The notes beneath the pieces are model-generated. The model made no database searches, was not told the DNA's origin, and worked only from the letters and a program-made list of their open reading frames with translations. From Spirochaetales bacterium (GTDB taxonomy: Bacteria; Spirochaetota; Spirochaetia; SZUA-6; JAFGRV01): DNA of 64,000 nucleotides. Shown here piece after piece: positions 7,929 to 54,403 of this stretch. Location: assembly GCA_016930085.1 (NCBI GenBank), contig JAFGHO010000067.1, forward strand, positions 1,041-65,040, in the 5' to 3' direction. Both the position numbers and the translations under genes were made by a program. Numbering within the stretch: position 1 is the first letter of the stretch; each line of letters starts with the position of its first letter.

Positions 7929-8001
7929 GGGCCGCTAGCTCAGTAGGCAGAGCAACGCCCTTTTAAGGCGTGGGTCGAAGGTTCGAATCCTTCGCGGCTC
8001 A
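7929..8001 (+). tRNA. tRNA-Lys (anticodon UUU)
   Basis: Cloverleaf readable by eye. Acceptor GGGCCGC/GCGGCTC with one G-U pair. D-arm AGCTCAGTAGGCAGAGC. Anticodon loop CUUUUAA. T-arm GGTTCGAATCC. Discriminator A. CCA not encoded. Confidence 0.9.
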
Positions 8002-12580: not shown

Positions 12581-12581
12581 T

Positions 12582-14180: not shown

Positions 14181-14390
14181 CCCGCTTCAGGTCATATGAA
14201 ACTCAGGGCGCCGATGGCTGTGCATATATAAACGGATGCAGATAACCCGTCTTCCCCATTCGAATGACGCTGCCTTCCCCGGACAACACCGGCCGGCTTT
14301 GGTTGCCGTGTACCGGCTTCCGGTAGATACATCCCGACAGGTCAGGTGCTGAAATATACCCCGAAGATGATTGTCAAGAAAGGATCGGGC

Positions 14391-29982: not shown

Positions 29983-30002
29983 TTTTCGACCTCCGTCCCC
30001 GT
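29983..30002. repeat. Direct repeat copy 2 (TTTTCGACCTCCGTCCCCGT)
   Basis: See copy 1. Lies at the left edge of the AT-rich Fic island. Confidence 0.5.
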
Positions 30003-30147
30003 TATCTCAACCTACATCCCCCTCCCGGATGAGAATAACATACTTGATCATACCCGTTAAATGTAACATACTCCTTATTGAAAGAGCCGGAATCATTCAA
30101 TTTTGGGACGCGCGTGGGTATAATGGGAAGGTGCATGTCTGCATGGA

Positions 30148-30215
30148 AAGTAAAATATAAAATCCTATATTTTACTTTAAGGCCGTAAAGTAAAATATGG
30201 AATACTATATTTTAT
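30148..30215 (+). promoter_or_regulatory. Two tandem palindromic operator-like sites (AAGTAAAATAT-N8-ATATTTTA) upstream of or overlapping the fic start
   Basis: Site 1 at 30148-30177 and site 2 at 30188-30215, 40-bp register. Each is an inverted repeat AAAATAT...ATATTTT. Embedded in an AT-rich leader. Confidence 0.45.
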
Positions 30216-30228
30216 GTTGGGGAAAGAA

Positions 30229-31359: not shown

Positions 31360-31411
31360 CTTTGAGAATATTTTTATATGCTACTTCTTTATTAACCCGG
31401 GAGACTTGTAT

Positions 31412-32584: not shown

Positions 32585-32614
32585 AGATTTGCAGCAGGTA
32601 TCCATGGAAAGGTT

Positions 32615-34981
32615 TTGAGTTATTCACGTGATATACGTAAAGGTATGGCAGAAGGGCTTGCCTTGATGGGCACAAGATCAAAATCGTTGATTAATTGTAC
32701 GGAACAAAAACCGGAAGCTGTTGCTGTTCTTACGATAAGAGAAATTTTTGATAAAGCCGGTTGGAAACGCTGGGCAAGTCTGAACGATTTGCTTCCAATA
32801 TTAGCCGAAGCATCGCCCGTAGAATTCCTTACTGCTGTGGAGCAGGCATTACAACAAAATGAATGCCCTTTTGATGAATTATTCGCACAGGAAGGAAAAG
32901 GATTATTGGGAAGTAATTATCTGTCCGGATTATGGTGGGCTTTGGAAGCTCTTTCATGGGATGAGGAATATATAACTCGAACATGTGTCATTCTTGGAGA
33001 ACTTGCATCTCATGATCCTGGCGGGAATTGGGCCAATCGACCAATTAATTCCTTAACTTCGATTTTATTGCCATGGCATCCTCAAACAAAAGCAAATAGT
33101 GATACAAGGATCGCCGCTTTCAAGGCTGTCCTTTTAGAATTTCCCGGAATTGCCTGGAAACTGGTCATTAATTTACTTCCTGAACAACATCAAACTTCAT
33201 CCAGTACATATAAACCACAATGGCGTAATCCAATACCTGGAGATTGGAAACCCAAAGTAACAAACAAGGAATATCAGGATCAAGTTGAAAAATATGCAGA
33301 TATAGCTGTTTATATGGCTGTTACAGATCCTTCCAGGATTAAGGATTTGGTTGAAAATCTTGATAATCTGCCTGAATCATCCTTTGACAGGATATTGAGA
33401 CATATTTCTTCAAAACAGGTAACATCGCTTCCTGAAAATGAACGGTTGCCCATTTGGATAAGTTTGAAACAATGTGCCAGAAAGCACCGGCGGTATGCAG
33501 ACACACAATGGGCTCTGGATGCTGTTTCAGTATCAAAAATAGAAGCGGCTGCCAAAAAGATTGCACCTGAAAGCCCTGAGGGGCGTTACAGAGAACTTTT
33601 TATAAATAGAAGCAATTATCTTTATGAAAGTAATAGTGATATACAAGAACAGAATGATAAATTGAATGAAAAACGACAAAAAGCTGTACAGGAAATAATG
33701 GATAAAGATGGAATTAATGGGATTATAGCTTTTACACATACTGTTGAATCTGCTGAGCAGGTAGGATGGGCACTTGGCGCAATAGCAAATGACGAAATCG
33801 ATACTTATTTGTTGCCTGAATTTTTAACGGATAAGACAGAAAAAATCAAACGCTTCATAAGCATGTATATATTAAATCGATATTGTATATATAGATGGGA
33901 ATGGGTTGATGGGTTGAATCGCTCTCACTGGACCATGGATCATAATTGTCAGTTCCTCATGTGTTTGCCATTTGTCATCGATACATGGCATAGAGTAACA
34001 AAATGGCTAAACGAAGATGAAAATCAATACTGGAAAAAAGTTAATGTTAATCCATATGATTCAGATGATGACCTTGTTTTCGCAATCGATAAACTTATTG
34101 AGGCAGGAAGACCTCAAAAAGCAATTGATTGCCTGTGTTACAGAAAATACAAGAAATTGCCACTAGATAGGGATCGTACAATGAAAGCTTTATTTAATGC
34201 AATATCTTCTGAAGAATCATCGGCTTATATAGATTCTTTAAATGCTATAGAACTTATTAAAGAACTTCAAAACGATCCTGAAGCCGATCCAAACGATCTT
34301 TTTAAAATCGAATGGGCATATTTACCCTTACTCGATTCTCATCACGATGCCGAACCAAAGTTTCTTGAGAAACAACTCGCTTCAAACCCTGGGTTTTTCT
34401 GCGAATTGATTCAACTTGTGTTTAAATCCAGCAAAGAAGAAAAAAATGACATTAATATAAATGAAGGAAGCAAAAATATTGCGGAGAATACATGGAGACT
34501 TCTTCATAATTGGAAAAGGCCGCCTGGAATGAATGAAAATGGAAATTTCGAATCAAAATATTTTAAGTCATGGCTTGAAATTGTAAAAGAAAAGTGCAGG
34601 GAATCCGGACATTATGAAGTAGCTATGAGGAAGATAGGTGAGGTGCTTGTATATTGTCCTGCCGATAAAGAGGGACTCTGGATTGATAAAGATATTGCAA
34701 GAATGCTGAATGAAAAGGATGCCGATCCTATGAGAAGGGGATTCAATACAGAAGTATACAATTCGAGAGGTTTTCATGCAGTTGATCCAAAAGGTAAACA
34801 GGAAAGGGAAATAGCTGGTAAATGGAGGGAAAAAGCATATGCTGTCGATAATGAAGGTTTCGCACGATTTGCCGCATCATTACGCGAGTTGGCCGGTTCT
34901 TTTGAACGTGAAGCAAGGATGTTTAAAAATATATTTATTGATGAATTCGGATTGGTAACTGGTGAGGAAGATACAGACTAA
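32615..34981 (+). CDS. Hypothetical 788-aa protein (no recognisable domain), island gene 3
   Basis: Uninterrupted 2.37-kb ORF, AT-rich, predicted cytoplasmic and largely alpha-helical. Start uncertain (TTG 32615 or ATG 32645). Confidence 0.55.
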   Translation: MSYSRDIRKGMAEGLALMGTRSKSLINCTEQKPEAVAVLTIREIFDKAGWKRWASLNDLLPILAEASPVEFLTAVEQALQQNECPFDELFAQEGKGLLGSNYLSGLWWALEALSWDEEYITRTCVILGELASHDPGGNWANRPINSLTSILLPWHPQTKANSDTRIAAFKAVLLEFPGIAWKLVINLLPEQHQTSSSTYKPQWRNPIPGDWKPKVTNKEYQDQVEKYADIAVYMAVTDPSRIKDLVENLDNLPESSFDRILRHISSKQVTSLPENERLPIWISLKQCARKHRRYADTQWALDAVSVSKIEAAAKKIAPESPEGRYRELFINRSNYLYESNSDIQEQNDKLNEKRQKAVQEIMDKDGINGIIAFTHTVESAEQVGWALGAIANDEIDTYLLPEFLTDKTEKIKRFISMYILNRYCIYRWEWVDGLNRSHWTMDHNCQFLMCLPFVIDTWHRVTKWLNEDENQYWKKVNVNPYDSDDDLVFAIDKLIEAGRPQKAIDCLCYRKYKKLPLDRDRTMKALFNAISSEESSAYIDSLNAIELIKELQNDPEADPNDLFKIEWAYLPLLDSHHDAEPKFLEKQLASNPGFFCELIQLVFKSSKEEKNDININEGSKNIAENTWRLLHNWKRPPGMNENGNFESKYFKSWLEIVKEKCRESGHYEVAMRKIGEVLVYCPADKEGLWIDKDIARMLNEKDADPMRRGFNTEVYNSRGFHAVDPKGKQEREIAGKWREKAYAVDNEGFARFAASLRELAGSFEREARMFKNIFIDEFGLVTGEEDTD

Positions 34982-35203
34982 ATCTAAACTTTTACATGTG
35001 AAACGAATATTATATTTATCTATCCATTATCAGAAACCAATCTTCCCTGATACTCCGGCCGTATAAAAATCCTTCTTGTAATACCCGCAGAATAATAAAA
35101 AAGGCGGCAAGGAAGCCTCCTTGGGGCCGTCTTTCCGGCGTCCCCGTGCTTCCCGCACCGCCCTTTCAGATGAAAAGGAATCAAGGCCGCAAGGCGGCCC
35201 CGA

Positions 35204-43358: not shown

Positions 43359-44090
43359 GTGCTGGCCGCTCTTTTTTTTTTACTCGGGAACGGTGCGGGG
43401 TGCTGCGGGGTGAATGGTAAAGAAAAAAGTCCGCAGCTTCCCGAATGCAGATGTTTTGACGATGTGGTGCGGTATAACGGTATGACAGTCAGCATCGATG
43501 GATGGTATGAAGTCGAGCCGGTTCCCGGGGGGAAGCGCCTGCAGGCTGCTTCAATCGTGCTCGCCGACGGGACCCGGCTCATCCATTCCTACAGGCCGGT
43601 AAAGGAATTGTTCTGTTTTATCAACAGGCGGATTACGGTTACCGGGGTCGTCACGGTCGATTCGGGCCAGGGACCGGAGGTGCAGCAGGTGATGGCCCCC
43701 CATATCGGCATTGATACAATCTCCTTACATCCGGATGAAGAACCGTGCGGGGAAACACCCGTGAGGATTCCCGATCTCCCCTTTATCGAGAAAAAAGCCG
43801 ATATCGGAAAGTGGCATGACCGATGGGTGCATGTTTACGGCCGCCTATCCGGTCTCGACCTCCGTCCCCATGAATCACTCTGGGCGAATGCAACCCTCCT
43901 CTTGCACGACGGGACAACACTATGTTTTGAATGGGTTTCATTTTCCCGATGGTCGCCTTTTGTCGATTCGGACGTTACGGTGACTTTACTGCTTAAGCCG
44001 GAACGGGAGGAGAAGGGTGCGCTGTATTTCCGTGCCGGAAGAACGGCCGTTTGCAGCGGTAAAACGGCCCGGTGCGGCATGAATGACTGA
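43359..44090 (+). CDS. Hypothetical secreted/lipoprotein with internal two-fold repeat
   Basis: Hydrophobic N-terminus with GCCG. Two similar halves (…SIVLADGTRLIH… / …TLLLHDGTTLCFEW…). Confidence 0.45.
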   Translation: MLAALFFLLGNGAGCCGVNGKEKSPQLPECRCFDDVVRYNGMTVSIDGWYEVEPVPGGKRLQAASIVLADGTRLIHSYRPVKELFCFINRRITVTGVVTVDSGQGPEVQQVMAPHIGIDTISLHPDEEPCGETPVRIPDLPFIEKKADIGKWHDRWVHVYGRLSGLDLRPHESLWANATLLLHDGTTLCFEWVSFSRWSPFVDSDVTVTLLLKPEREEKGALYFRAGRTAVCSGKTARCGMND

Positions 44091-44173
44091 AAGATTCGGA
44101 TATACCGTGAGTACAGCGTCTCTTGTAAAAAGTCCGGGGGCGTATATACTGTATAGACAGAGAGAGAAACGAG

Positions 44174-44743
44174 ATGCCGACTAAAATAACTTTTTATCCG
44201 AATGGTACCTGGGAAGGAGGAGCGAGAATTCCTCCCGTGCTGCAGGACATGTCCGATCTTTCCGAATGGATACGCCATTTTCTCAAGGAATATAAAAACC
44301 TGGGGAAATTATATGCGAAATATTTTACGAATGACGGAGAACTCATTGGTCAGGAAAAGGCGAATCTCGTGAGTGCCCTTGACGGTATTATCGGCGGGCT
44401 TTTACTTCTCCGCAGGTACGTCACGCTAAACACCCCCCTTCATTTCGAATCCCTCGACAACTCGTATAATTTCTGGTTTGAAATAAAGCTCGACACGCTC
44501 AACTGGCGCGGAAGGGGTAAGATGAGCAACAGGTATACATTCAACATTTCCAGTTTCGCCCACTGGTACGGCAATACCATGATTCAGAAAATACAGCAGG
44601 TTTTCAGGGATTATTCCAGGGCCATGGAGGACGGGAAACTTACCACGGAGGAACGCAACGGCCTTATCCGATTTATCGAAGTTATTATTTTCGATATTCT
44701 CGTCATTGAGAAAGTACTTATCGCCACCGATATACACCGGTAA
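44174..44743 (+). CDS. Hypothetical protein
   Basis: 189-aa ORF. No recognisable domain. Confidence 0.45.
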   Translation: MPTKITFYPNGTWEGGARIPPVLQDMSDLSEWIRHFLKEYKNLGKLYAKYFTNDGELIGQEKANLVSALDGIIGGLLLLRRYVTLNTPLHFESLDNSYNFWFEIKLDTLNWRGRGKMSNRYTFNISSFAHWYGNTMIQKIQQVFRDYSRAMEDGKLTTEERNGLIRFIEVIIFDILVIEKVLIATDIHR

Positions 44744-44801
44744 TGATTGCTTATGGCGATTTCTTCTTTTATATCTATTTTATAAAGAGGAGCAGTGAAA
44801 A

Positions 44802-45137
44802 ATGAGGGAACGAAGACGCTTCCGGCGGCTGGAGCTTGATGTATTGGTGAATTTCTCGGAAAAAGCGCGGGCCCGCGCCAAAAATATCAGTCTGCTCGGG
44901 ATCTGTATCATCACCAATATCCCCTTTCATGCCGGAGTTTATCTGAATCTCCTTATTACCCTTCCGGATACTACAACGATTGAAACATTGGGCAGAGTGA
45001 TCTGGCAGAGAAAAATCAAACCGGATGAATACGAGAATGGAATCGAGTTTTATAATATAAACCCGAATGAAAAAAATAAGCTGGATGACTTTATCAGGGG
45101 ATATAATGCGGAGAAGGGGAACGGATCCTCTTGCTGA
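44802..45137 (+). CDS. PilZ domain protein (c-di-GMP receptor), paralog 1
   Basis: N-terminal RRRFRRLELD (RxxxR) and NISLLGICI (DxSxxG-type) PilZ motifs. RBS AGAGGAG. Confidence 0.7.
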   Translation: MRERRRFRRLELDVLVNFSEKARARAKNISLLGICIITNIPFHAGVYLNLLITLPDTTTIETLGRVIWQRKIKPDEYENGIEFYNINPNEKNKLDDFIRGYNAEKGNGSSC

Positions 45138-45301
45138 CGAACAGGCAGGGCATGTTACGGCATCGTCACTTCCCCCAATCCGGCTTGAGAATACCCGACT
45201 GGTATTGGAATATGAATATTCATCTTTTATTTTTGTCTTGATTAAAATCGTTTTCTGAATTAGTATCCTGACAATAAATGCAATGTGAAGAGTAAAGGCG
45301 G

Positions 45302-45715
45302 GTGAAAATGGGAAATGCCGAACAAGAACATCAGCGTGATGAGGTAAGCACCCTCACGGGCGGCAGAAAAAAAACGATCAAAAGCTCGGAATTGCTGCTC
45401 AATAAAGCCGTTCTTCTTGTACTTTCGGAGAAAGAATTCGGAAATGCCTTTGTTATCCGGAAACGTGAGGTTGTCGTCGGGCGCAATAAAAGCTGTGATT
45501 TTACGATTGACGATCCGCTTGTGAGTAATGAGCACTGCAAAATTACGAGTGGTGAAGACGGCAGGTTTTGTATTGAAGATCTACATTCGACGAACGCCAC
45601 CTTTATCAACAGGAAAAAACTCAAAAAAAAAGAACACCTGCTTTATGGAGACAGGATCGTTATCGGTGACACGATTATCCGTTTTTATCTCGAAGAGCAG
45701 ATAGAAGAAAAATGA
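45302..45715 (+). CDS. FHA domain protein
   Basis: FHA core: VVVGRNKSCDFTIDDPLVSNEHCKIT...STNATFINRKKL. Confidence 0.7.
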   Translation: MKMGNAEQEHQRDEVSTLTGGRKKTIKSSELLLNKAVLLVLSEKEFGNAFVIRKREVVVGRNKSCDFTIDDPLVSNEHCKITSGEDGRFCIEDLHSTNATFINRKKLKKKEHLLYGDRIVIGDTIIRFYLEEQIEEK

Positions 45716-45984
45716 GGGCACTTCCCCAAATTTACCGTGCAGGTTTTGGGAAGGATCCTTAGGAAATAATGCCCGATTACGCCTCATTTTCGGGAAATTC
45801 TTATGGCCGTTTGTAAATAAAACTAGTATATTTTAATCGGACGGAAAATGTGAAGAAAAAGTAACGGGGCCGTGAAGTGGGGCGCCCTGTTTTTATCTTT
45901 TAATACGAAAAAAGCAGAAAAATTAATTACTCATGTCCGGTGATGGATAAAACGGGAACGTTCGTTTAATAAAGGAGTTTATGT

Positions 45985-46338
45985 GTGCGGTATAATGTCA
46001 AGTATCCTTATGATTCTGAATCCGGGAACATTCGTATGAAAGAAAAACGGCGATTTGAGAGGGTCAGCCTCGATACCTATGCCAATTATTCGAGTGACAA
46101 AAGGGCACAGGTCAAGAATATCAGCCAGGGTGGGCTTTGTATCACCACCGACCACTTTATCTCAAAGGGTACATTACTTTTCCTGGTTGTTTCGCTTTCC
46201 CGAAAGGGTATGATTCAGGTGATCGGCGAGTCTGTATGGTGCAGAAAAAAGGGAGAAGGAGTCTATGAAAACGGAATTTCCTTCTTCTGTTTGGATGATT
46301 TTAATGTGCGGAAGCTGAAAGAGTATATCGGGTCATAG
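45985..46338 (+). CDS. PilZ domain protein, paralog 2
   Basis: KRRFERVSLD ... NISQGGLCI. GTG at 45985 with RBS AAAGGAG; alternative ATG at 46036 gives MKEKRRFERV, parallel to paralog 1. Confidence 0.65.
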   Translation: MRYNVKYPYDSESGNIRMKEKRRFERVSLDTYANYSSDKRAQVKNISQGGLCITTDHFISKGTLLFLVVSLSRKGMIQVIGESVWCRKKGEGVYENGISFFCLDDFNVRKLKEYIGS

Positions 46339-46858
46339 GCCGTCGGAGAATTGTCCGGAGGAGAAAGGTGGATTTTTTTCCGGCATTTTATTGTTTTTTG
46401 AACGAAAGACACAACCGGAAAGCACGGTGTTTCGGCGGTACCGGTATAAATCATGTAAAAAAGTCTGTTTTCCTCTTGAATAATGGAAATGCATGAACAA
46501 CAATATTAGTGGGGGTTCGTGGCGTGGTAATAGAGAAGCCGCGCCGTGTATGTATGGGGCAAGGATATACGGGAGAGAACCGCCGTACCGGTATGAATAT
46601 CTGCGACTGGTGCATCGGGATAACTGCCTGTATATGGAGAGAATTGGGTGTGTGCAGGAAGGAGTCGAGAAACCTAATGACATAACGCAATAGCAATAAA
46701 GCCATCGACATGACGCTTTTTCACAGGTCTTGATGAAAGAAGGAAAGACCACCGCGTGAAGGGAGGGGCCGGGGAGAAGCGACATGCAGGTGTAGCCGGG
46801 GTTTTATCCGGCAGGATAGAACATTATGGTTATATATCAAGGAGAGGAGGAATTACTA

Positions 46859-47191
46859 TTGAAAGAAGATAGAAGTTTTCCGCGTGTAAAACTGGATGTC
46901 ATTCTTTCAAGCGTAAAAAATCAACAAATCCAGACCGAAAATGTGAGTCAAAACGGTATTTGTATCATCACTGCGGAACCGTACAGCAACGGGAAGTATT
47001 TGAGCAGGATGTTGATGCTTCCCGGCGGCGAAGAGATCAATGTTCTGGGAAAGGTAGTGTGGTGCAACCGGTTCAACAATTATTACAAAAGCGGGGTTGA
47101 GTTTATCAGCATCAACAGTAATGATCGTGAAAAATTAAGAAAATATATCAAGAAGATGATAAAGAAGGAGAAAGGAGTAGTCTGCCGCTAA
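46859..47191 (+). CDS. PilZ domain protein, paralog 3
   Basis: TTG at 46859 preceded by GGAGAGGAGG (8-nt spacer) gives MKEDRSFPRVKLD ... NVSQNGICI. The ORF track's ATG at 46826 is upstream of the RBS. Confidence 0.6.
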   Translation: MKEDRSFPRVKLDVILSSVKNQQIQTENVSQNGICIITAEPYSNGKYLSRMLMLPGGEEINVLGKVVWCNRFNNYYKSGVEFISINSNDREKLRKYIKKMIKKEKGVVCR

Positions 47192-47384
47192 TTCTATCCG
47201 GGAAGAAATTCCGGATAACGGGATGGTTGCCGCGGATGGATTTCCACCGCCGAATCCAGGGCAACTCACAACAGGATGCAATGTCCGACCGAAATCCCGG
47301 GGTTGGCTTATAAAGCGGTTTTTTCAACCGGGGCAGCCAACCCCTTTTTTACATACGATACTTCCGTTTACCCGCGATACACCG

Positions 47385-48341
47385 CTATTTTATATTTTTT
47401 ACCGTCTCATCTTCCTGCAGCCTGCCCGTGACTAACCTGTTGACGACCGTCATGGCAATAATGATGAGAAAGACGAGGAGGGTGATGGCGCTTCCCTTCC
47501 CGTATCGCTGGGCCCGCTGGAGGAGCCACATGATGTAGAATGCCGATGTAAGTCCCGCGCTTCCCGTTCCCCCCATGTTGAGGTATCCGCCGGTGAGCAT
47601 GTACGGATCGTCGAAAAGCTGCATCCCCCCAATAATACTCAGCGTGACTGCAAAGAAAATAATCGGTATAAGCAGCGGGAGTGTGATGTATATATGTTTC
47701 TGAAGGGTGTTCGCCCCGTCTATCTCGACAGATTCATACAACTCTTCCGGAATCGCCTGAAGTCCGGCAAGGTAAATGACCGTATTCCACCCGATATACC
47801 GCCAGTTTACCATGATCGCTATCGAGGGCTTTATATACTCCTTGTTCCCCAGCCAGTCGATTCGCGGTAACCCGATCGCCTCGAAAACATAGTTGAGAAG
47901 GCCGAAATTGTTTCCGAAAACGTAATTGAAGATAATGGCGACGGAAACGGCGCTTGTTATAAAGGGGAGGAAATAGGCCGTTTTAAAAAAATCCCTTCCC
48001 TTGAGCGTCTTGTTGTTGAGGATAATCGCCAGGGGAATCGCGATTATGTGCTGTGTAAACGAACCGAAAAGAAGCAGCCACCCTGTATTATAGAGGGATT
48101 GCCAGAAAAATTTGTCTTCAAAGAGAAGCTGTCCGAAATTCCTGAGTCCGACAAACTCCATCGGTCCCATGCCGCTCCATTTTTGAAGGGAAAGGAAAAA
48201 CGCGAAAATATTCGGGAAGAATCCGAATATCAGGTAAAGAAGGACGAAGGGGGATAAAAAAAGATACGGCGCAAGGTGCTGCTGATTGAGACTCAATCTG
48301 GCAAGCAATCTCGGCACACGAATGGTTTGTTTTTTTTTCAT
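47385..48341 (-). CDS. Carbohydrate ABC transporter permease (MalF/UgpA-type)
   Basis: 6-TM permease with EAA-loop region (ELYESVEIDGANTLQKHIYITLPLL). Confidence 0.85.
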   Translation of the reverse strand: MKKKQTIRVPRLLARLSLNQQHLAPYLFLSPFVLLYLIFGFFPNIFAFFLSLQKWSGMGPMEFVGLRNFGQLLFEDKFFWQSLYNTGWLLLFGSFTQHIIAIPLAIILNNKTLKGRDFFKTAYFLPFITSAVSVAIIFNYVFGNNFGLLNYVFEAIGLPRIDWLGNKEYIKPSIAIMVNWRYIGWNTVIYLAGLQAIPEELYESVEIDGANTLQKHIYITLPLLIPIIFFAVTLSIIGGMQLFDDPYMLTGGYLNMGGTGSAGLTSAFYIMWLLQRAQRYGKGSAITLLVFLIIIAMTVVNRLVTGRLQEDETVKNIK

Positions 48342-48351
48342 TCGGTTCCTC

Positions 48352-49209
48352 CTATCCTTTCAGGCTTCCCGCGAGAAAATTGGAGATGATTTTTTTCGAG
48401 AAAAGAATGAAGACAAGCAGAAGCGGGATAATCGCCAGCGCGTTTCCGAGCATTTTGGCCCCGTAGCCCTGACCCGCGATTTCCGCTTTCAACTGAAACG
48501 CGGAGAGTGCGGGCGGTATCGTTCTCATTTCTTCTTTTGTCAGCATGAGAAGGGCCCAGAGAAAATTGTTCCATGAGCCGACAAAGGTTATCGTTCCCAG
48601 AACCGCGATACCCGGCATCGAAAGGGGGAACCCTATTTTCAGGAGAATCCAGAACTCGTTCAGGCCGTCGATCCGGGCCGCGTCCATCAGGTCCGACGGT
48701 ACCGTTGTCGTGATGAACTGTGTCATGAGGAAAATGCCGAAGGCGTTCGCCATGCCCGGAATGAACATTGGCCAGTAGGTGTTGAGCCACCCGAACCAGA
48801 GCATGAGTCTGTATGCAGGAATAATTCCGAGGAGTGGGGGAATCATAAGGGTAAGCAATATAAAGGAAAAGAAAAACGACTTTCCCTTGAAATTATATTT
48901 TGCCAGGGCGAATCCGCCCATCGTACAGAAAAATATAACCGTCGATGTCTGCAATACGGCGATAATGACACTATGGAAAAAATTGAGGGCAAAGGGTATC
49001 TGTTCGAAAAGGATACCCCAGTTGACGAGAAGTTTGTCACCGGGAGTGAATGGGGGCGGGATACTGAATATGGTTTTGAGGTCCCTGGTCGCGAGAATAA
49101 AAACATCATAAAAGGGAAATGCGAAAATGACGAGAAGCAGCGTGAGAAAGATGTATAAAATGGTCCTTCGTATGTAAAATCCTGTTTTCCTCAATAACAT
49201 GTTCTTCAT
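48352..49209 (-). CDS. Carbohydrate ABC transporter permease (MalG/UgpE-type)
   Basis: EAA loop DLMDAARIDGLNEFWILLKIGFPL. No substrate-binding protein or ATPase gene adjacent. Confidence 0.85.
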   Translation of the reverse strand: MKNMLLRKTGFYIRRTILYIFLTLLLVIFAFPFYDVFILATRDLKTIFSIPPPFTPGDKLLVNWGILFEQIPFALNFFHSVIIAVLQTSTVIFFCTMGGFALAKYNFKGKSFFFSFILLTLMIPPLLGIIPAYRLMLWFGWLNTYWPMFIPGMANAFGIFLMTQFITTTVPSDLMDAARIDGLNEFWILLKIGFPLSMPGIAVLGTITFVGSWNNFLWALLMLTKEEMRTIPPALSAFQLKAEIAGQGYGAKMLGNALAIIPLLLVFILFSKKIISNFLAGSLKG

Positions 49210-49311: not shown

Positions 49312-52300
49312 CTATTTTATGTCGATTTTTTCCTGGCCTTCCCAATCCTCCGGCACCCCCGTTTCGGCGTATTCTCTCGCGCGGTCCCGGTACAACCGGG
49401 CCGCCCTGTCGTATGAATCGATGTCGAGAACGGAATCGAAATATTTCTCCGCGAGGACGAAGTCCCTGCTCAAATAGGCGAGAAGGCCTTTTTCAAAGAA
49501 ATCCTTGGTTTTCTGTTTGATCTGCCCGCTTTCGCTGTTATCGAAGATTTCATAGATGGGAACCGAATCGCGCTTCCCCTTTACCTGCACATGCCCCAGG
49601 AAGCGGTAAAAATAAATGCTCGGGTCCTGGAGTGAAAAAAAGATCGATGAACTGATGATGATCGAACCGCCGTACGCCTTTGTCAGGGCCTCGAGGCGCG
49701 CGGCGACATTGACCGAGTCCGAGATAACCGTGCCTTCGATCCGGTATTCGTCGCCGATTGTGCCGAGCATGATCGGACCGTTATGAATCCCGATGCCGAT
49801 CTGGATCGGCGAATATTTCGATTTGACGCGGAATGTGTTGTACGTGGCGACCATCTTTTTCATTTCGAGCGCCGCCTTCAGGGCGTCTTCGGGATTGCCG
49901 GGAAAAATCGCCATGATCCCGTCCCCGATGTACTTGTCGATGTAGCCGTTGTATTTTCGTATCGACGGGCCCATTTTCTCGAAATAGGAGTTGAGAAAAT
50001 TGAAATTCTGTTTCGGCGACATGCTTTCGGAAAGCGACATAAACGAGCGTATATCGCAGAACATGATCGTCATATCTCGCTGGATCTGGTCGCCACGTTC
50101 CACCTCGACGATCGAATCACGGCCGAGAAGGCGAAGAAACCCGTTCGGAACGAACCTGCTGTAGGCGATATTGATCTTGGCGAGCTGGACGTGGGTTTTT
50201 ATCCGCGCGATCAATTCCGATTTGTGAACCGGCTTCGAGATGTAGTCGTTGGCCCCGGCGGACAGACCCTCGACGAGGTCCGATACGAGGTTTTTCACCG
50301 TAAAAATGATAATCGGCAGCTGATGTTTTTCGAATTTCTCCCTGATCTTTTTGCAGACGAGATACCCCGACATTCCGGGCATCATGACATCGAGGAGAAC
50401 AATATCGAAGGTGTCTTCCTGAAGCCGCTTGAGGGCGTCTTTTCCGCTCAAGACATGGACGAGTTCGAACTGATCCGGATCGAGCTGGGTCTTGATGACC
50501 TCATGGTTCACCTGTTCGTCGTCGACGATGAGGACCTTTATCGCTTTTGCCGTAAGAACGAGGGTTTCGGTATCTTCGACCGGAATCAGGTCGCCCTCGT
50601 ATTCGCTCATATCGACGAACCGGGAGGCCTTTATCTCATCCTCCTCCCGTTGCTGGACCTTGCTTATGGGAATGGAAAAGGTAAACGAAGAACCCCTCCC
50701 CACGACGGAATCGACGGTTATCGCGCCGCCCTGGAGTTCGATGAGCTGTTTTGTAATCGAAAGGCCGATGCCCGTTCCTCCGTACGGCCGCGAGAGGCTC
50801 GTGTCGACCTGTTCGAATGATTCGAATATACGGTCGAGCTTGTCCGGCGGAATCCCGATACCCGTATCGGTGACGGTAATAAAGGCTTCCGAACCTCTTT
50901 GTTCAGCGGAAACGGTGATCCTGCCCGATTCCGTGAATTTGATCGAATTACCGATCAGGTTGTGCATTATCTGCTGCAGCCGCGTTTCGTCGCCATAAAC
51001 AAAAGGGAAATCCTTCGGGATATTGTTTTCAAGCGAAATATCCTTCTGCGCGACCATTGGCCGCGAAAACACGAATACCACGTCGCATACCTCCCGCAGA
51101 TCGACCGGTTTTTTCTGAATCACCAGTTCTTTCTTTTTCATTTTCGAGAAATCGAGAATATCGTTCACCAGATTGGCGAGTCTCCTGCCGCTCGATATGA
51201 TCAGTGATATGGTCCTTGCCTGTGTGTCATTAAGTTTTCCGCTTGTCCCTTCATAAAGCGATTCGGCCAGTCCGATTATCCCGTAGAGGGGGGTGCGAAG
51301 CTCGTGGCTGGTGTTCGCGAGGAAGGCGTCCTTGAGTTTGTCAAGAGAAACGAGTTTTTCCGAAAGCCGTTCGACCGATGTCAGGGCTTCGAGGAAACGA
51401 AGCGAGAGAAGCACCGACTGGAAGAAAATGAATATAAACAGACCTACGGAAAGAAAGTAACCGATTTTCAGAATATTGAAATAATAGAGGATATCATTGA
51501 CCGCCGTCGCGAAGAAAATGAGAAATCCGATGAGAAAAATCAACGCACCTTTGTGTTTTTTTGCGATACCGATGAGGAGCCCCGCGATAATCGCCATTCC
51601 CACCGCGATGATGCAGAGCTGATAGAACGGCATGATTTCCGAATACACGTGAACCGGAAGCAGTACGACCGAAAAACTGAAGAGGCCGCTTATTCCCATG
51701 AAGACATAGTTCAGGTACCTGTACCATGTATACGGATAGAGGGAGTGAAAATAGAGAGAAAAGCAGACGGCGGCAGCCGGCACGGTGAGGAATTCTGTGG
51801 CCAGCAGGAAATGGTACAAACCGGGAAACATGGTATAAAGAAACCGTTCGCCCATTAAAATGGTTCTCAGACTCAAGGACAGGCAGAAAAGCCCGAAAAA
51901 GAGGGGCCCCTTTTCCTTTTTTCTCAGAAAAAAGAGGGCAAGATGATACAGCCCCATAATGAGAAAACTCCCGAAAAGAATCATTTCCATGGCAAGATTA
52001 CGGGAACGCAGCTGTTCGATCTGTATTTTCCGTCCCATGACAATCGGTGTAAAACCGCCGTGCCTGTCGCTGAAATTGCTGATTTGAAGAATAATGGTAA
52101 ACCCGCTGCGCTGCGGCGTAAAATATTCGGCCCGCGGAAGAATATCCGGTTTGTGTGTTTCCGCCGTGGTACCGATCGTTCCGCTCTGGATCAGAAGTAT
52201 ATCGTCGATATAAAGGCGGTAGGCGGTATCGATCTCCTTGACGTATATTCCGATGAGTCCGATACCGGCTTTGTGATCGACCCTCATTCTGAATGTCGCG

Positions 52301-52605
52301 CAACCGAATACCGGATAGATTTTTTTTATATCTTTCTGTTCGTTCCAGAATCCCGGGCCATGGAAATAGCCGGTCATCTGCGGTCTTTCTCCTCCGGTAA
52401 AATCTCCGGGTGAAAGCAGTCGGTTCCAGTAGAACTCCCATTCTCCTTTCAGCGATACGGGGCTGTCCATATTGAAATCGATATTTTGAAGGTCAAGGAC
52501 CCCCCGTTGCGCTTCAATATCTTCCCCGATACCGGAATCGCATCCGGAAAACGCAAGGAATATGAGGATTACGGGAAGAAATATGACGAGATTCCCCTTA
52601 TTCAT
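49312..52605 (-). CDS. Multidomain sensor: periplasmic 7TMR-DISMED2 + 7TM-DISM, histidine kinase, receiver, class III adenylate/guanylate cyclase
   Basis: Lipobox and signal peptide. GEWEFYW-type DISMED2 start, 7 TM helices. HisKA H-box (NTSHELRTPL). HATPase (GIGIP...GGTGIGLSI). REC (VLIVDDE...VLLDVMMPG). CHD cyclase (MFCDIRSF...YIGDGIMAIFPG). ATG at 52605 with G-rich RBS; the ORF track's TTG at 52623 is less likely. Confidence 0.85.
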   Translation of the reverse strand: MNKGNLVIFLPVILIFLAFSGCDSGIGEDIEAQRGVLDLQNIDFNMDSPVSLKGEWEFYWNRLLSPGDFTGGERPQMTGYFHGPGFWNEQKDIKKIYPVFGCATFRMRVDHKAGIGLIGIYVKEIDTAYRLYIDDILLIQSGTIGTTAETHKPDILPRAEYFTPQRSGFTIILQISNFSDRHGGFTPIVMGRKIQIEQLRSRNLAMEMILFGSFLIMGLYHLALFFLRKKEKGPLFFGLFCLSLSLRTILMGERFLYTMFPGLYHFLLATEFLTVPAAAVCFSLYFHSLYPYTWYRYLNYVFMGISGLFSFSVVLLPVHVYSEIMPFYQLCIIAVGMAIIAGLLIGIAKKHKGALIFLIGFLIFFATAVNDILYYFNILKIGYFLSVGLFIFIFFQSVLLSLRFLEALTSVERLSEKLVSLDKLKDAFLANTSHELRTPLYGIIGLAESLYEGTSGKLNDTQARTISLIISSGRRLANLVNDILDFSKMKKKELVIQKKPVDLREVCDVVFVFSRPMVAQKDISLENNIPKDFPFVYGDETRLQQIMHNLIGNSIKFTESGRITVSAEQRGSEAFITVTDTGIGIPPDKLDRIFESFEQVDTSLSRPYGGTGIGLSITKQLIELQGGAITVDSVVGRGSSFTFSIPISKVQQREEDEIKASRFVDMSEYEGDLIPVEDTETLVLTAKAIKVLIVDDEQVNHEVIKTQLDPDQFELVHVLSGKDALKRLQEDTFDIVLLDVMMPGMSGYLVCKKIREKFEKHQLPIIIFTVKNLVSDLVEGLSAGANDYISKPVHKSELIARIKTHVQLAKINIAYSRFVPNGFLRLLGRDSIVEVERGDQIQRDMTIMFCDIRSFMSLSESMSPKQNFNFLNSYFEKMGPSIRKYNGYIDKYIGDGIMAIFPGNPEDALKAALEMKKMVATYNTFRVKSKYSPIQIGIGIHNGPIMLGTIGDEYRIEGTVISDSVNVAARLEALTKAYGGSIIISSSIFFSLQDPSIYFYRFLGHVQVKGKRDSVPIYEIFDNSESGQIKQKTKDFFEKGLLAYLSRDFVLAEKYFDSVLDIDSYDRAARLYRDRAREYAETGVPEDWEGQEKIDIK

Positions 52606-52997
52606 CGACGGCACCCCCCTCAAACACTCTTACTATTGTATCGACTAAAAAAAAAAGAAAAAGCAGTCATTGTTTGTCAGTAAGGTAATAAAAAAACCGG
52701 TATCCGGCGAGCTATAGCATCTGCTTTTGTATCGCCAAAAGATTCATCCGCGTGACGGTTACGGTTCATAGTATAGTTCAGCCTGGGATGAATTTCAAAT
52801 TAAAAACCGGTCCGGGATATTCCGCCGGAACGGCCGCCCCGTTATCCTCCGTCTGTTTTCATACGGGAGAAACGCCCGGTTGCCGGACGGACGGCAACCG
52901 GGCTTCAAACGAGATCGTGAGTACCCCTTTGCCCCTTGACTTTCAGGTGTCGCGGGATTTACAATTGATGGTATGATGCGTCATAAGGAGGTCGTGT

Positions 52998-53560: not shown

Positions 53561-54403
53561 GTGTTTCGGATGAAAGCCATACAAAGGCTGATGTTATATT
53601 GTTTATCCCTCCTGCTTCTCGTCGTCATCGGTTTTGTCGACAGGGTCACCGGATATGAAATATCTTTCTCGATATTCTATCTGATGCCGATCGTCATATC
53701 GAGCTGGTATCTGGGAATGCTGCCCGGAATTGTTTTTGCGGCAGCAAGCGCTGTCGTCTGGCTCGTCGTCGATATCTCGGGTAATACCGCGTATTCCTTC
53801 CCGCTGATACCATATTGGAATATGTTCGTCCGCCTCGGCTTTTTTTTCATTATCAGTATCATGCTTTCGAGACTCAAAAAAGCCATGGACAGGGAGCGGG
53901 AACAGTCGCACATCGATTTTCTGACACGGGCTTTGAATTTGCGGTCGTTTATGGAAACTTCCGCACGTGAACTCCATCGCATGAGAAGGTATCGTCGTCC
54001 CGTAACGCTGATATATCTGGATTGCGATAATTTCAAGGCCGTCAATGACCGGTTCGGGCATCAAACCGGAAATTCCCTCCTCCAGAATGTCGCAAGGACG
54101 ATAGGGGAAAATACGCGTGCAACCGACGCGTTCGCCCGCCTCGGCGGCGATGAGTTCGCGATCCTGCTGCCGGAAACGGACCAAGAGGTCGCCCTCGGGC
54201 TGGCAGGCCGTCTTTCCGGGGCATTGGAGGAATGCATGAATGAAAACGAGTGGCCGGTAACGTTCAGCCTCGGTATCGCGACCTTCAGAAGCGCTCCGGA
54301 GGATGCGGAAGCGATGTTGAGGGCCGCGGACAACCTTATGTACGAGGCGAAGAACCGGGGCAAAAACGGAAGCGTCGACAGGGTTTTCGACGAACAGAAA
54401 TAA
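53561..54403 (+). CDS. Membrane-anchored diguanylate cyclase (GGDEF)
   Basis: 3-4 N-terminal TM helices, then GGDEF domain with intact RLGGDEF active site and substrate-binding NDRFGH. Confidence 0.8.
   Translation: MFRMKAIQRLMLYCLSLLLLVVIGFVDRVTGYEISFSIFYLMPIVISSWYLGMLPGIVFAAASAVVWLVVDISGNTAYSFPLIPYWNMFVRLGFFFIISIMLSRLKKAMDREREQSHIDFLTRALNLRSFMETSARELHRMRRYRRPVTLIYLDCDNFKAVNDRFGHQTGNSLLQNVARTIGENTRATDAFARLGGDEFAILLPETDQEVALGLAGRLSGALEECMNENEWPVTFSLGIATFRSAPEDAEAMLRAADNLMYEAKNRGKNGSVDRVFDEQK

Follow-up and report, generated by a model that had tools for sequence, protein, structure and literature searches.

Four small genes lie on the plus strand between positions 44802 and 47191 of a 64-kb stretch of DNA (the window) from an uncultured Spirochaetales MAG; three of them encode stand-alone PilZ proteins and the other encodes an FHA protein. 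This grouping raises the question of whether predicted receptors for c-di-GMP and a predicted reader of phospho-threonine act as a single unit, as proposed in an earlier note on this DNA, and of what the spacers between the genes contain. Comparison with related lineages suggests that the locus is probably a signalling neighbourhood in which two conserved blocks of genes now stand side by side. As a type of neighbourhood it is ordinary, and its genes are real and look functional. The genes, all on the plus strand, are as follows.

43359 to 45137, plus strand: block 1, consisting of a lipoprotein-like protein of 243 aa, a 189-aa protein (unk189) and PilZ1
43359 to 44090, plus strand: ORF for the 243-aa protein with a lipoprotein-like N-terminus, first gene of the block that ends with PilZ1
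44174 to 44743, plus strand: unk189, 189 aa, 58 bp upstream of PilZ1, member of a small uncharacterised family
44802 to 45137, plus strand: PilZ1, stand-alone canonical PilZ protein of 111 aa (Pfam PF07238, E=4.9e-11)
45308 to 47191, plus strand: block 2, consisting of FHA, then PilZ2 ('a' type), then PilZ3 ('b' type)
45308 (ATG) to 45715, plus strand: FHA protein, 135 aa (Pfam PF00498, E=1.5e-20)
46036 (ATG) to 46338, plus strand: PilZ2, stand-alone canonical PilZ protein of the 'a' ortholog group, 100 aa (Pfam PilZ, E=6e-10)
46842 to 46852, plus strand: PilZ3 ribosome-binding site, GAGAGGAGGAA, 6 nt before the TTG
46859 (TTG) to 47191, plus strand: PilZ3, stand-alone canonical PilZ protein of the 'b' ortholog group, 110 aa (Pfam PilZ, E=1.4e-13)

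When the codons of the four genes are compared with those of their orthologs, the differences fall mostly at third positions in every case; they are therefore real coding genes, and all four are under purifying selection. The Pfam matches of the PilZ and FHA genes lie well above the gathering thresholds, and domain matches, motifs and fold matches agree with the earlier identification of three stand-alone PilZ domains and one FHA domain; the FHA is of canonical type.

The choice of start codon determines both the lengths of these proteins and those of the spacers. PilZ1 has a ribosome-binding site, GAGGAG, 9 nt upstream of its start. For FHA, the ATG at 45308 is more likely than the GTG at 45302, which would give a protein of 137 aa. 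The start of PilZ2 had been given with mixed figures: the length of 117 aa and the 270-bp spacer belong to a GTG at 45985, whereas the MKEKRRF motif belongs to the ATG at 46036 (100 aa, 320 bp). The 17-codon extension from the upstream GTG is not conserved, and in one related lineage, L040, PilZ2 starts at the same codon as 46036, with GTG. For PilZ3, an ATG at 46826 would give 121 aa. (In L040 and L057 an in-frame TGA comes after this ATG, and L056 has ATT in its place.) Because the TTG and GAGAGGAGGAA are invariant in the four lineages compared (the window, L040, L056 and L057) and the upstream ATG is not conserved, the TTG start proposed previously is right, with the correction that it yields 110 rather than 111 aa.

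The c-di-GMP-binding residues are intact in all three PilZ proteins, as the earlier note had read them. Each contains RxxxR (R5 and R9) and N-(I/V)-S-x-x-G, with a hydrophobic residue at the 'h' position: RRFRR and NISLLG in PilZ1, RRFER and NISQGG in PilZ2, and RSFPR and NVSQNG in PilZ3. R5, R9 and G33 do not vary among 11 members of the family, and S30 hardly does. Two orthologs (the L002 'b' protein and P0025, the ortholog of PilZ1) have an N at the motif Ser. An AlphaFold model of PilZ3 (pLDDT 73.9, from an alignment of six sequences) shows a beta-barrel of six strands with a helix at the C-terminus, and a Foldseek search with it returns only PilZ domains at PDB ranks 1-38, including MotI, MrkH, PA4608/MapZ, YcgR and Alg44. 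From these features we infer that each PilZ protein of the window is a canonical c-di-GMP receptor. In the mechanism envisaged, c-di-GMP would be clamped between the flexible RxxxR arm at the N-terminus and the strand with N-h-S-x-x-G; the beta-barrel, once loaded, would act by binding another protein, in the manner of MapZ and of stand-alone PilZ proteins of the DgrA type.

Characterised PilZ proteins resemble those of the window to differing degrees. MapZ (PA4608) of P. aeruginosa and DgrA of Caulobacter are likewise single PilZ domains of about 100-125 aa, with an N-terminal RxxxR arm, [D/N]hSxxG, a six-stranded beta-barrel and a C-terminal helix, and three PA4608/MapZ structures (1ywu, 5xly and 5y4r) are among the fold matches of the PilZ3 model. 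Sequence identity to these proteins is only about 17-20%, however; no CheR or flagellar gene is found near the PilZ genes of the window, which keeps two PilZ paralogs paired beside an FHA gene, and c-di-GMP binding is here a prediction. MotI/DgrA (YpfA) of B. subtilis heads the PDB matches in sequence as well as in fold (5vx6; profile E=0.0014, Foldseek E=3.8e-4), and the window motifs align with its RxxxR and NISAGG. In MotI and YcgR, which target the stator or rotor of the flagellum, a PilZN domain is joined to the PilZ domain, whereas the window proteins consist of the PilZ domain only. Within the same phylum, PlzA of Borrelia and TDE0214 of Treponema denticola are c-di-GMP receptors with a PilZN3-PilZ two-domain architecture; the single-domain proteins of the window are only distantly related to them, and PlzA (7mie) is a weak fold match of the PilZ3 model.

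The three PilZ proteins are only 35-39% identical to one another and are therefore old paralogs, not recent duplicates. In addition, PilZ1 belongs to a different block from the other two. Its ortholog in L058, P0025 (74% identity by BLAST, 68% over a global codon alignment), is the last gene in the order 250 aa, 189 aa, PilZ1, and is followed by a membrane protein instead of FHA. Since the L058 gene has the same two genes upstream and no FHA after it, PilZ1 is assigned to a block separate from FHA-PilZ2-PilZ3, and the description of the genes as one tandem array of duplicated receptors does not hold. The gaps within block 1 are only 83 and 58 bp, and for this reason it is probably transcribed as a single unit. 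Its first protein, called lipoprotein-like by eye from the sequence LLGNGAGC, is 62% identical to the first protein of the L058 block, and unk189 is 84% identical to its L058 ortholog; Pfam and PDB searches gave no match for either. The unk189 family comprises 93 clusters at 50% identity, and in P0039 and P0041 its domain forms the C-terminal cytoplasmic part of sensors with Reg_prop, Y_Y_Y and transmembrane helices.

Block 2 is conserved in about seven lineages of uncultured Spirochaetales. The order FHA-PilZa-PilZb is found in L040, L002, L004/L005, L041 and L052, while L010 has FHA followed by PilZa only; the PilZ protein that comes after FHA is of the 'a' group in L040, L002, L004, L041, L010 and L052. 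PilZ2 and PilZ3 represent two distinct orthologous groups, which related lineages retain together downstream of FHA (the PilZ3 orthologs P0021 and P0022 are 83% and 79% identical to it). The flanks of the block vary, with PilZ1, Ppnp, a histidine kinase or a 700-aa protein upstream, and ABC permeases or a CbiQ-BioY operon downstream. Preservation of the FHA-PilZ-PilZ order while the flanks change is compatible with a functional link between phospho-threonine and c-di-GMP signalling, but is no proof of one.

The FHA protein itself has the features of a phospho-threonine reader. The residues that bind phospho-threonine, G58-R59, S73-x-x-H76 and N96, are invariant in 19 orthologs, and the AlphaFold model (pLDDT 79.9, with residues 1-25 below 50) predicts a disordered N-terminal tail of ~25 residues with a conserved Thr, followed by a canonical FHA beta-sandwich. 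The best fold matches are OdhI of Corynebacterium and GarA of Mycobacterium (TM-score normalised to the target 0.9, rmsd ~1 Å, 27-29% identity), which are also the best PDB matches by sequence (E=2.6e-12). Both are of similar size (about 135-160 aa) and likewise have a disordered tail before a single FHA domain. The window protein, in contrast, comes from a different phylum, has no ETTS motif, carries a small residue (G, A or S) three positions after the conserved Thr, scores 44 bits against the OdhI equivalog cut-off of 200, and has no 2-oxoglutarate dehydrogenase or kinase gene in its neighbourhood. It would act as a GarA/OdhI-like adaptor, whose intact pocket would read the output of a Ser/Thr kinase. 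The FHA domain of DgcB from Bdellovibrio bacteriovorus also matches by sequence. DgcB has the architecture tail-FHA-GGDEF, and binding of the FHA domain to its own phosphorylated tail switches the enzyme on, an example of c-di-GMP signalling gated by an FHA domain that reads phospho-threonine (PMC6733907). There the FHA domain is part of the same polypeptide as the c-di-GMP-producing enzyme, whereas in the window FHA is a separate protein beside predicted c-di-GMP receptors. A gene for a GGDEF diguanylate cyclase is located at 53561-54403, 6.4 kb downstream of the locus.

Are FHA, PilZ2 and PilZ3, then, a single, dedicated output module in which Ser/Thr phosphorylation and c-di-GMP are coupled at the level of the receptors? 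In such a module FHA could bind a phospho-threonine on a PilZ protein or on a shared target, or c-di-GMP-bound PilZ could alter binding by FHA. The retention of gene order across changing flanks argues for this idea, as do the DgcB precedent and the conserved Thr in the disordered tail of the window FHA. On the other hand, the lineages with the adjacency are the closest relatives as judged by FHA identity, so that common descent can account for it; the FHA ortholog of 20 other Spirochaetota lineages has no PilZ gene within 6 kb and lies in other contexts, with other conserved partners (five of these orthologs are directly upstream of malQ-rpe and five downstream of Bat-like genes). Moreover, FHA and the PilZ genes always have a promoter-bearing spacer between them, a search of the 64-kb window found neither a Ser/Thr kinase nor a PP2C phosphatase, and there is no FHA-PilZ fusion among the proteins retrieved. 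What survives of the proposed specialised output module is a conserved adjacency confined to one clade; the module itself we consider unlikely, and the adjacency may be inherited gene order without function. A different objection to receptors of any kind would be that the PilZ proteins have degenerated into adaptors and lost c-di-GMP binding, like Xanthomonas XAC1133 or P. aeruginosa PilZ. Motif loss has occurred in some stand-alone PilZ proteins (bioRxiv 10.1101/814665), the three stand-alone L. interrogans PilZ proteins are predicted non-binders (PMC12943098), and the N in place of the motif Ser in two orthologs could be read in the same way. Given that both motifs are canonical in PilZ1, PilZ2 and PilZ3 and align with those of the c-di-GMP-binding MotI, and that R5, R9 and G33 do not vary in the family, this reading is improbable, and the PilZ proteins are best regarded as predicted c-di-GMP receptors.

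The spacers can be judged against the window as a whole. In a crude gene call the gaps have a median of ~82 bp and 75th, 90th and 95th percentiles of 165, 262 and 379 bp. Under a consistent choice of starts the three spacers measure 164-170, 320 and 520 bp; the first is therefore ordinary, the second falls in the top decile and only the third is exceptional, so that the earlier description of all of them as unusually long applies to the second and, above all, to the third. Nor is the genome especially compact, as had been thought: its coding density of ~88% is typical. The spacers and the features found in them are as follows.

45138 to 45307, plus strand: spacer S1, 164-170 bp, AT-rich (GC 0.40), of ordinary length
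45716 to 46035, plus strand: spacer S2, 320 bp to the ATG, non-coding, with the candidate PilZ2 promoter and a leader of ~195 nt
45804 to 45832, plus strand: candidate sigma-70-type promoter of PilZ2, with -35 TGGCCG (45804-45809), a 17-nt spacer and -10 TATATT (45827-45832)
46339 to 46858, plus strand: spacer S3, 520 bp, non-coding, of such length in the sub-clade of the window only, relatively GC-rich (GC 0.469), moderately structured on the sense strand
46355 to 46383, plus strand: terminator-like hairpin with a T-rich tail just 3' of PilZ2, from a consensus scan
46476 to 46504, plus strand: weak candidate promoter, TTGAAT, 17 nt, AACAAT, a consensus match only
46650 to 46664, plus strand: invariant, SD-like 15-mer GTGTGCAGGAAGGAG, ~195 nt upstream of the PilZ3 start
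46333 to 46785, minus strand: 150-aa ORF annotated by a gene caller on the public contig (L001)

In S2, the candidate promoter of PilZ2 lies within a 73-nt block (45797-45869) that is 75% identical to L040. The TAGTATATT box, which occurs once in the window, recurs at the matching position in L040, L002, L004/L005 and L052; L041 has it there as GAGTATATT. In L002, L004, L041 and L052 the promoter reads AAAAAAGTTGCC-N17-TATATT, whereas the -35 of the window, TGGCCG, is degenerate. S2 is thus a candidate for holding its own sigma-70-type promoter (-35 TGGCCG / TTGCCx, -10 TATATT), conserved in six lineages and followed by a leader that would be about 165-215 nt long across them; the spacer between FHA and PilZ is 213-323 bp in every lineage with the pair. 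No conserved ORF, Rfam match or consensus structure across six lineages was found in S2, and its fold z-score is -0.18. In S1 there is a weak candidate promoter for FHA, TTGATT, 17 nt, TAGTAT, ~70 nt upstream of the ATG; this is only a consensus match whose sequence is not conserved with relatives, and in L058 a different gene follows PilZ1 at the place of S1. The suggestion of individual promoters is accordingly well placed for S2, with weak candidates only in S1 and S3. (It should be noted that promoters, leaders and operon structure are here inferred from consensus matches and conservation.)

S3 has a different character. The equivalent spacer measures 437 bp in L040, 454 bp or more in L056 and 251 bp in L052, but only 37-49 bp in L002, L004 and L041, and S3 is, from this comparison, a lineage-specific expansion of the short gap seen in the more distant relatives. 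In GC content S3 equals or exceeds the genes on either side, which S1 and S2 do not. The hairpin just after PilZ2 also appears in the minimum-free-energy fold; it is not conserved, since it falls in a gap in L040. The candidate promoter of S3 lies in a block with 71% identity over 48 nt; it reads TTGCAT-N17-AACAAT in L040 and is not clearly conserved in L056. Further downstream, GTGTGCAGGAAGGAG is unique in the window and identical in L040, L056 and L057, although the window spacer around it shares only about 46-48% identity with those of L040 and L056. In three relatives, but not in the window, a 5-codon mini-ORF follows it, and a pyrimidine tract is found 45-70 nt downstream of it (46716-46722 in the window).

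These features leave three readings of S3 to be weighed. That the spacers are mis-annotated coding sequence, whether small proteins, a pseudogene or the 150-aa minus-strand ORF, is suggested by the gene-caller annotation of that ORF, by a 66-aa plus-strand ORF at 46493-46693 and by the fact that S3 is not AT-rich. Yet neither ORF has a Pfam match, the indels between lineages are not multiples of three, a six-frame comparison of the spacers yields no peptide conservation (best E-value 0.004, in a very small database), S3 retains no resemblance to PilZ or FHA and does not recur elsewhere, and no gene is called at the equivalent place in L040, L056 or L057. The 150-aa ORF is probably spurious, and a coding origin of the spacers, which the earlier note had named as an alternative, is very improbable. 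A more serious candidate is a functional RNA on the plus strand. It could be an independent small RNA, or a long structured leader that would control PilZ3 translation, with GTGTGCAGGAAGGAG, the pyrimidine tract and the genuine SD site pairing in alternative ways. In favour of such an RNA, three lineages have a long spacer (437 to 520 bp), its folding is strand-specific (z-scores against shuffles of -2.85 for the plus and -0.10 for the minus strand, and -2.98 for the plus strand of L040), the 15-mer is unchanged amid diverged sequence, and pyrimidine tracts lie between it and the SD site in all four lineages. Against this, S3 matches no Rfam family, the z-score of L056 is only -1.25, and RNAalifold yields a weak consensus (-13 kcal/mol over 335 columns) with no convincing compensatory changes, in a comparison of only four sequences, three of them close to one another. 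In addition, the predicted pairing partners of the 15-mer and of the SD site differ between lineages, complementarity of purine and pyrimidine tracts easily arises by chance, and a 37-49-bp gap suffices in the more distant relatives. Hence the small RNAs once suggested for the spacers have no Rfam match or conserved structure behind them, with hints in the 520-bp spacer only, and a functional RNA there is possible but on balance doubtful. S3 is most likely PilZ3's own promoter together with a leader or regulatory region.

Taken together, the comparisons suggest that the four genes do not constitute a tight operon, and that FHA, PilZ2 and probably PilZ3 each lie behind a non-coding spacer. In this arrangement the S2 promoter would drive PilZ2, and S3 would supply the promoter and leader of PilZ3.

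Four small genes, three encoding PilZ proteins and one an FHA protein, lie on the same strand as the earlier note had described, and all four match their Pfam families well above threshold:

44802-45137, plus strand: PilZ1, Pfam PilZ (4.9e-11)
45302/45308-45715, plus strand: FHA protein, Pfam FHA (1.5e-20)
45985/46036-46338, plus strand: PilZ2, Pfam PilZ (6e-10)
46826/46859-47191, plus strand: PilZ3, Pfam PilZ (1.4e-13)

The PF07238 bit scores of PilZ1, PilZ2, and PilZ3 are 43.3, 39.8, and 51.5 (curated cut-off 22.5), and the FHA protein scores 73.8 bits with PF00498 (curated cut-off 20.7); its overlapping, weaker match to Yop-YscD_cpl is to a related FHA-type model. The 64-kb window has no PilZ or FHA matches beyond these four genes. 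When each gene is compared with its closest ortholog, substitutions fall mostly at third codon positions (for PilZ3, 0.08/0.11/0.35 differences by codon position), and because of this pattern the four ORFs are judged to be real genes under purifying selection.

The translation starts can be placed by comparison with relatives. The TTG at 46859, which had been proposed as the start of PilZ3, is correct: when the window is aligned with the related loci L040, L056, and L057, both this codon and its ribosome-binding site, GAGAGGAGGAA, are invariant. As for the ATG upstream, at 46826, L040 and L057 have an in-frame TGA after it, and in L056 the codon is ATT. PilZ3 is mis-called on a Logan contig from run SRR13394437 that also carries the window locus, where the TTG is missed and the product is 82 aa, and in a plain ORF list, where it is 121 aa. 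For PilZ2, the ATG at 46036 (100 aa) is the most likely start; L040 has GTG at this position, and conservation does not reach into the 17-codon extension upstream. The FHA protein most likely begins at ATG 45308 (135 aa), in agreement with the NCBI annotation, whose proteins are sourced to 'MAG: Spirochaetales bacterium', and with the Logan annotation. With these starts all three PilZ proteins begin M-(K/R)-E-x-R-x-F-x-R, which bears out the parallel start motif of the earlier note.

Each PilZ protein carries RxxxR (R5, R9) in its N-terminal arm and a second motif, N-(I/V)-S-x-x-G, which is NISLLG in PilZ1, NISQGG in PilZ2, and NVSQNG in PilZ3 and which fits the refined definition [D/N]hSxxG, where h is hydrophobic (bioRxiv 10.1101/814665). 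Across 11 family members (two ortholog groups together with PilZ1), the RxxxR motif and G33 do not vary, and S30 hardly does; in two orthologs elsewhere the motif S is replaced by N. A family profile aligns these motifs with RxxxR and NISAGG of B. subtilis MotI (5vx6). The AlphaFold model of PilZ3, the sole PilZ of the three with a model (pLDDT 73.9, from a shallow 6-sequence alignment), has six beta-strands (15-85), a C-terminal helix (87-104), and a flexible N-terminal arm, and its PDB matches by Foldseek at ranks 1-38 are all PilZ domains, among them MotI, MrkH, PA4608/MapZ, YcgR, and Alg44. The residues of the PilZ c-di-GMP motifs are all present, so that the loss which the earlier note had named as a refutation is not seen. 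By every defining feature that alignment and model can address, the window proteins are canonical members of the PilZ family. In this they are unlike the stand-alone PilZ proteins of Leptospira interrogans, which are predicted not to bind c-di-GMP (PMC12943098).

Across 19 orthologs of the FHA protein, G58-R59, S73-x-x-H76, and N96 do not vary; these Gly-Arg, Ser-x-x-His, and Asn positions are the established phospho-threonine-binding residues of FHA domains. The AlphaFold model (pLDDT 79.9) consists of a beta-sandwich at residues 30-130 (~83-96) and a disordered N-terminal tail at residues 1-25 (<50); nearly every ortholog keeps a Thr in this tail, T15 in the 135-aa protein, in the context D-x-x-T-(L/I). 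The best sequence match is OdhI/GarA (E=2.6e-12), and the fold superimposes on OdhI and GarA with target-normalised TM-scores of 0.88-0.93 and an rmsd of ~1 Å; another match is the FHA domain of DgcB, a diguanylate cyclase of Bdellovibrio. Like GarA and OdhI, the 135-aa window protein is small, with one FHA domain behind a disordered N-terminal tail, but its tail is without the ETTS motif, and the NCBIfam OdhI model gives 44.4 bits against a cut-off of 200. Membership of the GarA/OdhI family is rejected on these two counts; the resemblance is kept as an architectural analogy only, and the protein belongs to the FHA family. Regulators of the GarA/OdhI type are phosphorylated by a Hanks-type kinase and act as inhibitors of 2-oxoglutarate dehydrogenase or of enzymes in glutamate metabolism. 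Neither a Ser/Thr kinase nor a PP2C phosphatase was found among window ORFs of at least 150 aa.

The earlier note had read the row as a tandem array of paralogs. Comparison with related loci, which were fetched through orthologs of the FHA protein and, likewise, of the PilZ proteins, indicates that it is not one unit; rather, two conserved blocks, [243 aa - 189 aa - PilZ1] and [FHA - PilZ2 - PilZ3], are juxtaposed. The first block occupies 43359-45137 (plus strand) and encodes a 243-aa lipoprotein-like protein, a 189-aa protein (unk189, 44174-44743), and PilZ1. Its counterpart in L058 (69-1874) encodes a 250-aa protein, a 189-aa protein, and the PilZ1 ortholog P0025, which are 62%, 84%, and 74% identical to the window proteins; what follows, 53 bp after the PilZ1 ortholog, is a gene for a multi-pass membrane protein and not for an FHA protein. 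The second block, FHA followed by a PilZ of the 'a' type (the PilZ2 ortholog group) and one of the 'b' type (the PilZ3 group), recurs in L040, whose FHA protein is 75% identical to that of the window, and in L002 (same place as L011), L004 (same place as L012, and near-identical to the Logan contig L005), L041, L042, and L052; L010 has FHA and then the 'a' type only. Since the first block occurs in L058 without FHA and the FHA-PilZ block is found in other loci, the window row is composed of two blocks. The flanks of the FHA-PilZ loci vary, with PilZ1, Ppnp, a 7TMR-DISM histidine kinase, or a 700-aa protein upstream, and either two ABC permeases (window, L056, L057) or a CbiQ-ABC-BioY operon (L002, L004, L041) downstream. 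About 2 kb downstream of the pair in L010 (8411-9526, minus strand) lies a putative receiver-SpoIIE/PP2C phosphatase fusion, as judged by eye.

A recent tandem duplication of the PilZ genes is also rejected, as the three proteins are old paralogs with pairwise identities of 35-39%, versus 74%, 66%, and 83% between PilZ1, PilZ2, and PilZ3 and their closest orthologs elsewhere. (Protein word-index searches return just 2-3 close orthologs for each PilZ.) The small FHA protein, on the other hand, is widespread in Spirochaetota: one search gave 22 spirochaete FHA loci, and the neighbourhood set holds 27 non-redundant ones. In the 20 of these 27 without an adjacent PilZ, there is none within 6 kb of FHA, and other neighbours recur; PilZ adjacency is therefore clade-specific. 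In five loci (L006, L013, L016, L020, L023) FHA lies 16-40 bp upstream of malQ (GH77 4-alpha-glucanotransferase) and rpe (ribulose-phosphate 3-epimerase), and in another five (L018, L019, L022, L024, L028) it lies just downstream of Bat-like vWA/TPR genes, and in three of these five it is upstream of der, which encodes a GTPase. The malQ-FHA pairing is curious, since glycogen accumulation gave GarA its name.

A spacer is always present between FHA and the PilZ gene that follows (213-323 bp). A functional link between the two is possible but doubtful; DgcB provides a precedent for an FHA domain that gates c-di-GMP signalling (PMC6733907). A more elaborate scheme, which is judged quite unlikely, would make FHA-PilZa-PilZb a dedicated module of the clade, in which a GarA-like phospho-threonine adaptor and two single-domain c-di-GMP receptors share a target and thereby merge Ser/Thr-kinase and c-di-GMP signals at the level of the receptors, and in which, within the sub-clade of the window, PilZ3 has gained a new structured 5' leader of ~450-520 nt around the invariant element GUGUGCAGGAAGGAG that controls its translation. 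No description of the FHA-PilZ gene pair was found in the literature searched. The conserved order of FHA and then two PilZ genes in an uncultured spirochaete clade offers a concrete pair for testing cross-talk between Ser/Thr phosphorylation and c-di-GMP.

With the chosen starts, the spacers between PilZ1 and FHA (S1), FHA and PilZ2 (S2), and PilZ2 and PilZ3 (S3) are 170, 320, and 520 bp; the earlier figures of 165 and 270 bp rest on two GTG starts. Intergenic gaps in the window have a median of ~82 bp, with 75th, 90th, and 95th percentiles of 165, 262, and 379, and a crude non-overlapping ORF call makes the window 88% coding. Thus, of the idea that the spacers are unusually long for a compact genome, the part concerning S3, which is exceptional, stands; S1 is ordinary, S2 falls in the top decile, and a genome that is 88% coding is not unusually compact.

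S2 has a GC content of 0.40 and a single-sequence fold z of -0.18; a six-frame comparison found no conserved peptide in it, and RNAalifold on six S2 leaders returned zero pairs. By these measures it is non-coding, AT-rich, and unstructured. It does contain a 73-nt block, 75% identical to L040, that is centred on TAGTATATT, a sequence present once in the window. This box recurs at the equivalent site in L040, L002, L004/L005, and L052; in L041 it reads GAGTATATT. In L002, L004, L041, and L052 the context is AAAAAAGTTGCC-N17-TATATT, which has the sequence of a textbook sigma-70-type promoter; in the window and L040 the -35 is TGG(C/T)CG, one mismatch from the TTGCCG of L041. The window sequence reads as a predicted PilZ2 promoter with its -35 at 45804-45809, its -10 at 45827-45832, and a leader of ~195 nt. 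This conserved box lends support to the suggestion that the spacers hold individual promoters. (Downstream of the promoter, the 'a'-type PilZ leaders of L002, L004, L041, and L052 have a purine-rich element, GAAGAGGT(A/G)GGGGTAAAAT; the corresponding place in the window and L040 reads AAAAAGTAAC(G/A)GGG.)

The gap equivalent to S3 is 37-49 bp in L002, L004, and L041, 251 in L052, 437 in L040, at least 454 in L056, and 520 in the window; by this comparison, it has been expanded in some lineages. S3 is a genuine feature, most simply the putative promoter and leader of PilZ3. A decayed PilZ or FHA gene is rejected, as PilZ and FHA profile searches of S3 are blank, and a six-frame peptide comparison likewise found no hidden coding. 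A mobile element or repeat is also rejected: S3 has no second copy in the window or the fetched loci, and no inverted terminal repeats. The 150-aa minus-strand ORF called on the Logan contig (46333-46785) is probably spurious, because the lengths of indels in S3 between lineages are not divisible by three and peptide conservation is absent; this likely false gene and the TTG start of PilZ3 are the two points at which annotation needs to be corrected.

Overall identity between S3 of the window and its relatives is only ~46-55%, with three patches that are better conserved. These are a promoter-like TTGAAT-N17-AACAAT at 46476-46504, common to L040 only; the ribosome-binding region of PilZ3; and a 15-mer, GTGTGCAGGAAGGAG, at 46650-46664, which is invariant in four sequences and is followed by a 5-codon mini-ORF in three relatives, the mini-ORF being absent in the window. 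Unlike S1 and S2, S3 has a GC content (0.469) at or above that of the flanking genes. Compared with dinucleotide shuffles, its plus strand is more stably folded in the window (z = -2.85) and in L040 (-2.98) and to a lesser degree in L056 (-1.25), whereas the minus strand is not (-0.10). In four of four lineages a pyrimidine tract lies 45-70 nt after the 15-mer and could pair either with it or with the Shine-Dalgarno (SD) site of PilZ3. A three-part switch of SD mimic, anti-SD, and SD can be drawn from these elements only as a hypothesis; the ensemble pairing partners vary from one lineage to another, and for four S3 sequences RNAalifold gives a weak consensus (-13 kcal/mol) with no covariation. 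(A metagenome scan for further relatives, made with the PilZ alignment, gave just distant PilZ genes and L052, and the genome scan covered a set that lacked the window's own species.) As to the small RNAs that the spacers might hold, Rfam finds no spacer RNA, including the c-di-GMP-I and -II riboswitches, with the window searched at gathering thresholds and 44000-47800 at E<=1; the sole Rfam match in the window is a tRNA at 7929-8001. The 520-bp S3 with its invariant 15-mer is a lead.

Building on the domain identities, intact motifs, fold models, conserved gene order, non-coding spacers, and conserved promoter box, all of which the analysis shows, a scheme can be outlined. Each PilZ protein would bind c-di-GMP and work through a protein partner, by analogy with stand-alone PilZ proteins of the MapZ/DgrA type. 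The FHA protein would read phospho-threonine, and phosphorylation of its own tail may switch it, as in GarA, OdhI, and DgcB. PilZ1 would be co-transcribed with its two upstream genes, while FHA, PilZ2, and PilZ3 would be transcribed separately. As regards a possible single operon, the gaps are 170, 320, and 520 bp, the second of them contains the conserved promoter box, and a terminator-like hairpin comes after PilZ2. A GGDEF cyclase (53561-54403) and a hybrid kinase-cyclase (49312-52623) are encoded nearby, and their link to the PilZ and FHA genes is only positional. Both protein types are well understood, and the cluster leaves the view of c-di-GMP or FHA signalling unchanged; the window genes extend known families in an uncultured lineage, with a gene order conserved within one clade and one puzzling spacer.

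The first block contains a further lead. Searches of Pfam, NCBIfam, and PDB found no match for the 243-aa protein or unk189, even when a 46-sequence profile was used. The unk189 family comprises 93 clusters at 50% identity, and E61, G115, and D153 are invariant. In two large sensor proteins, P0039 and P0041, the unk189 domain forms the C-terminal cytoplasmic part, after Reg_prop, Y_Y_Y, and three transmembrane helices. In sensors of this kind, that position is usually taken by a kinase or GGDEF output domain. The unk189 domain, which elsewhere takes the place of an output domain in transmembrane sensors, may represent a new signalling output domain.

Other features of the window are as follows:

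11168-15809, plus strand: tryptophan biosynthesis cluster with TrpE, a TrpG-TrpD fusion (GATase + Glycos_transf_3), and a TrpC-TrpF fusion (IGPS + PRAI)
27395-29800, minus strand: 801-aa protein with a dockerin type I domain and then many leucine-rich repeats
30214-31359: Fic/DOC protein, in the low-GC island
31292-32584 and 32615-34981: two large ORFs with no Pfam match, in the low-GC island
47385-49209, minus strand: two ABC permease genes, adjoining the 1103-aa hybrid
49312-52623, minus strand: 1103-aa hybrid with 7TMR-DISM, HisKA, HATPase, receiver, and class III nucleotide cyclase domains

The low-GC island, at ~30000-35000, has a GC content of 0.36-0.39 versus ~0.5 elsewhere and looks horizontally acquired. 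The same arrangement of permeases and hybrid follows the PilZ3 ortholog in L056. The pairing of dockerin with leucine-rich repeats is unusual for a spirochaete.
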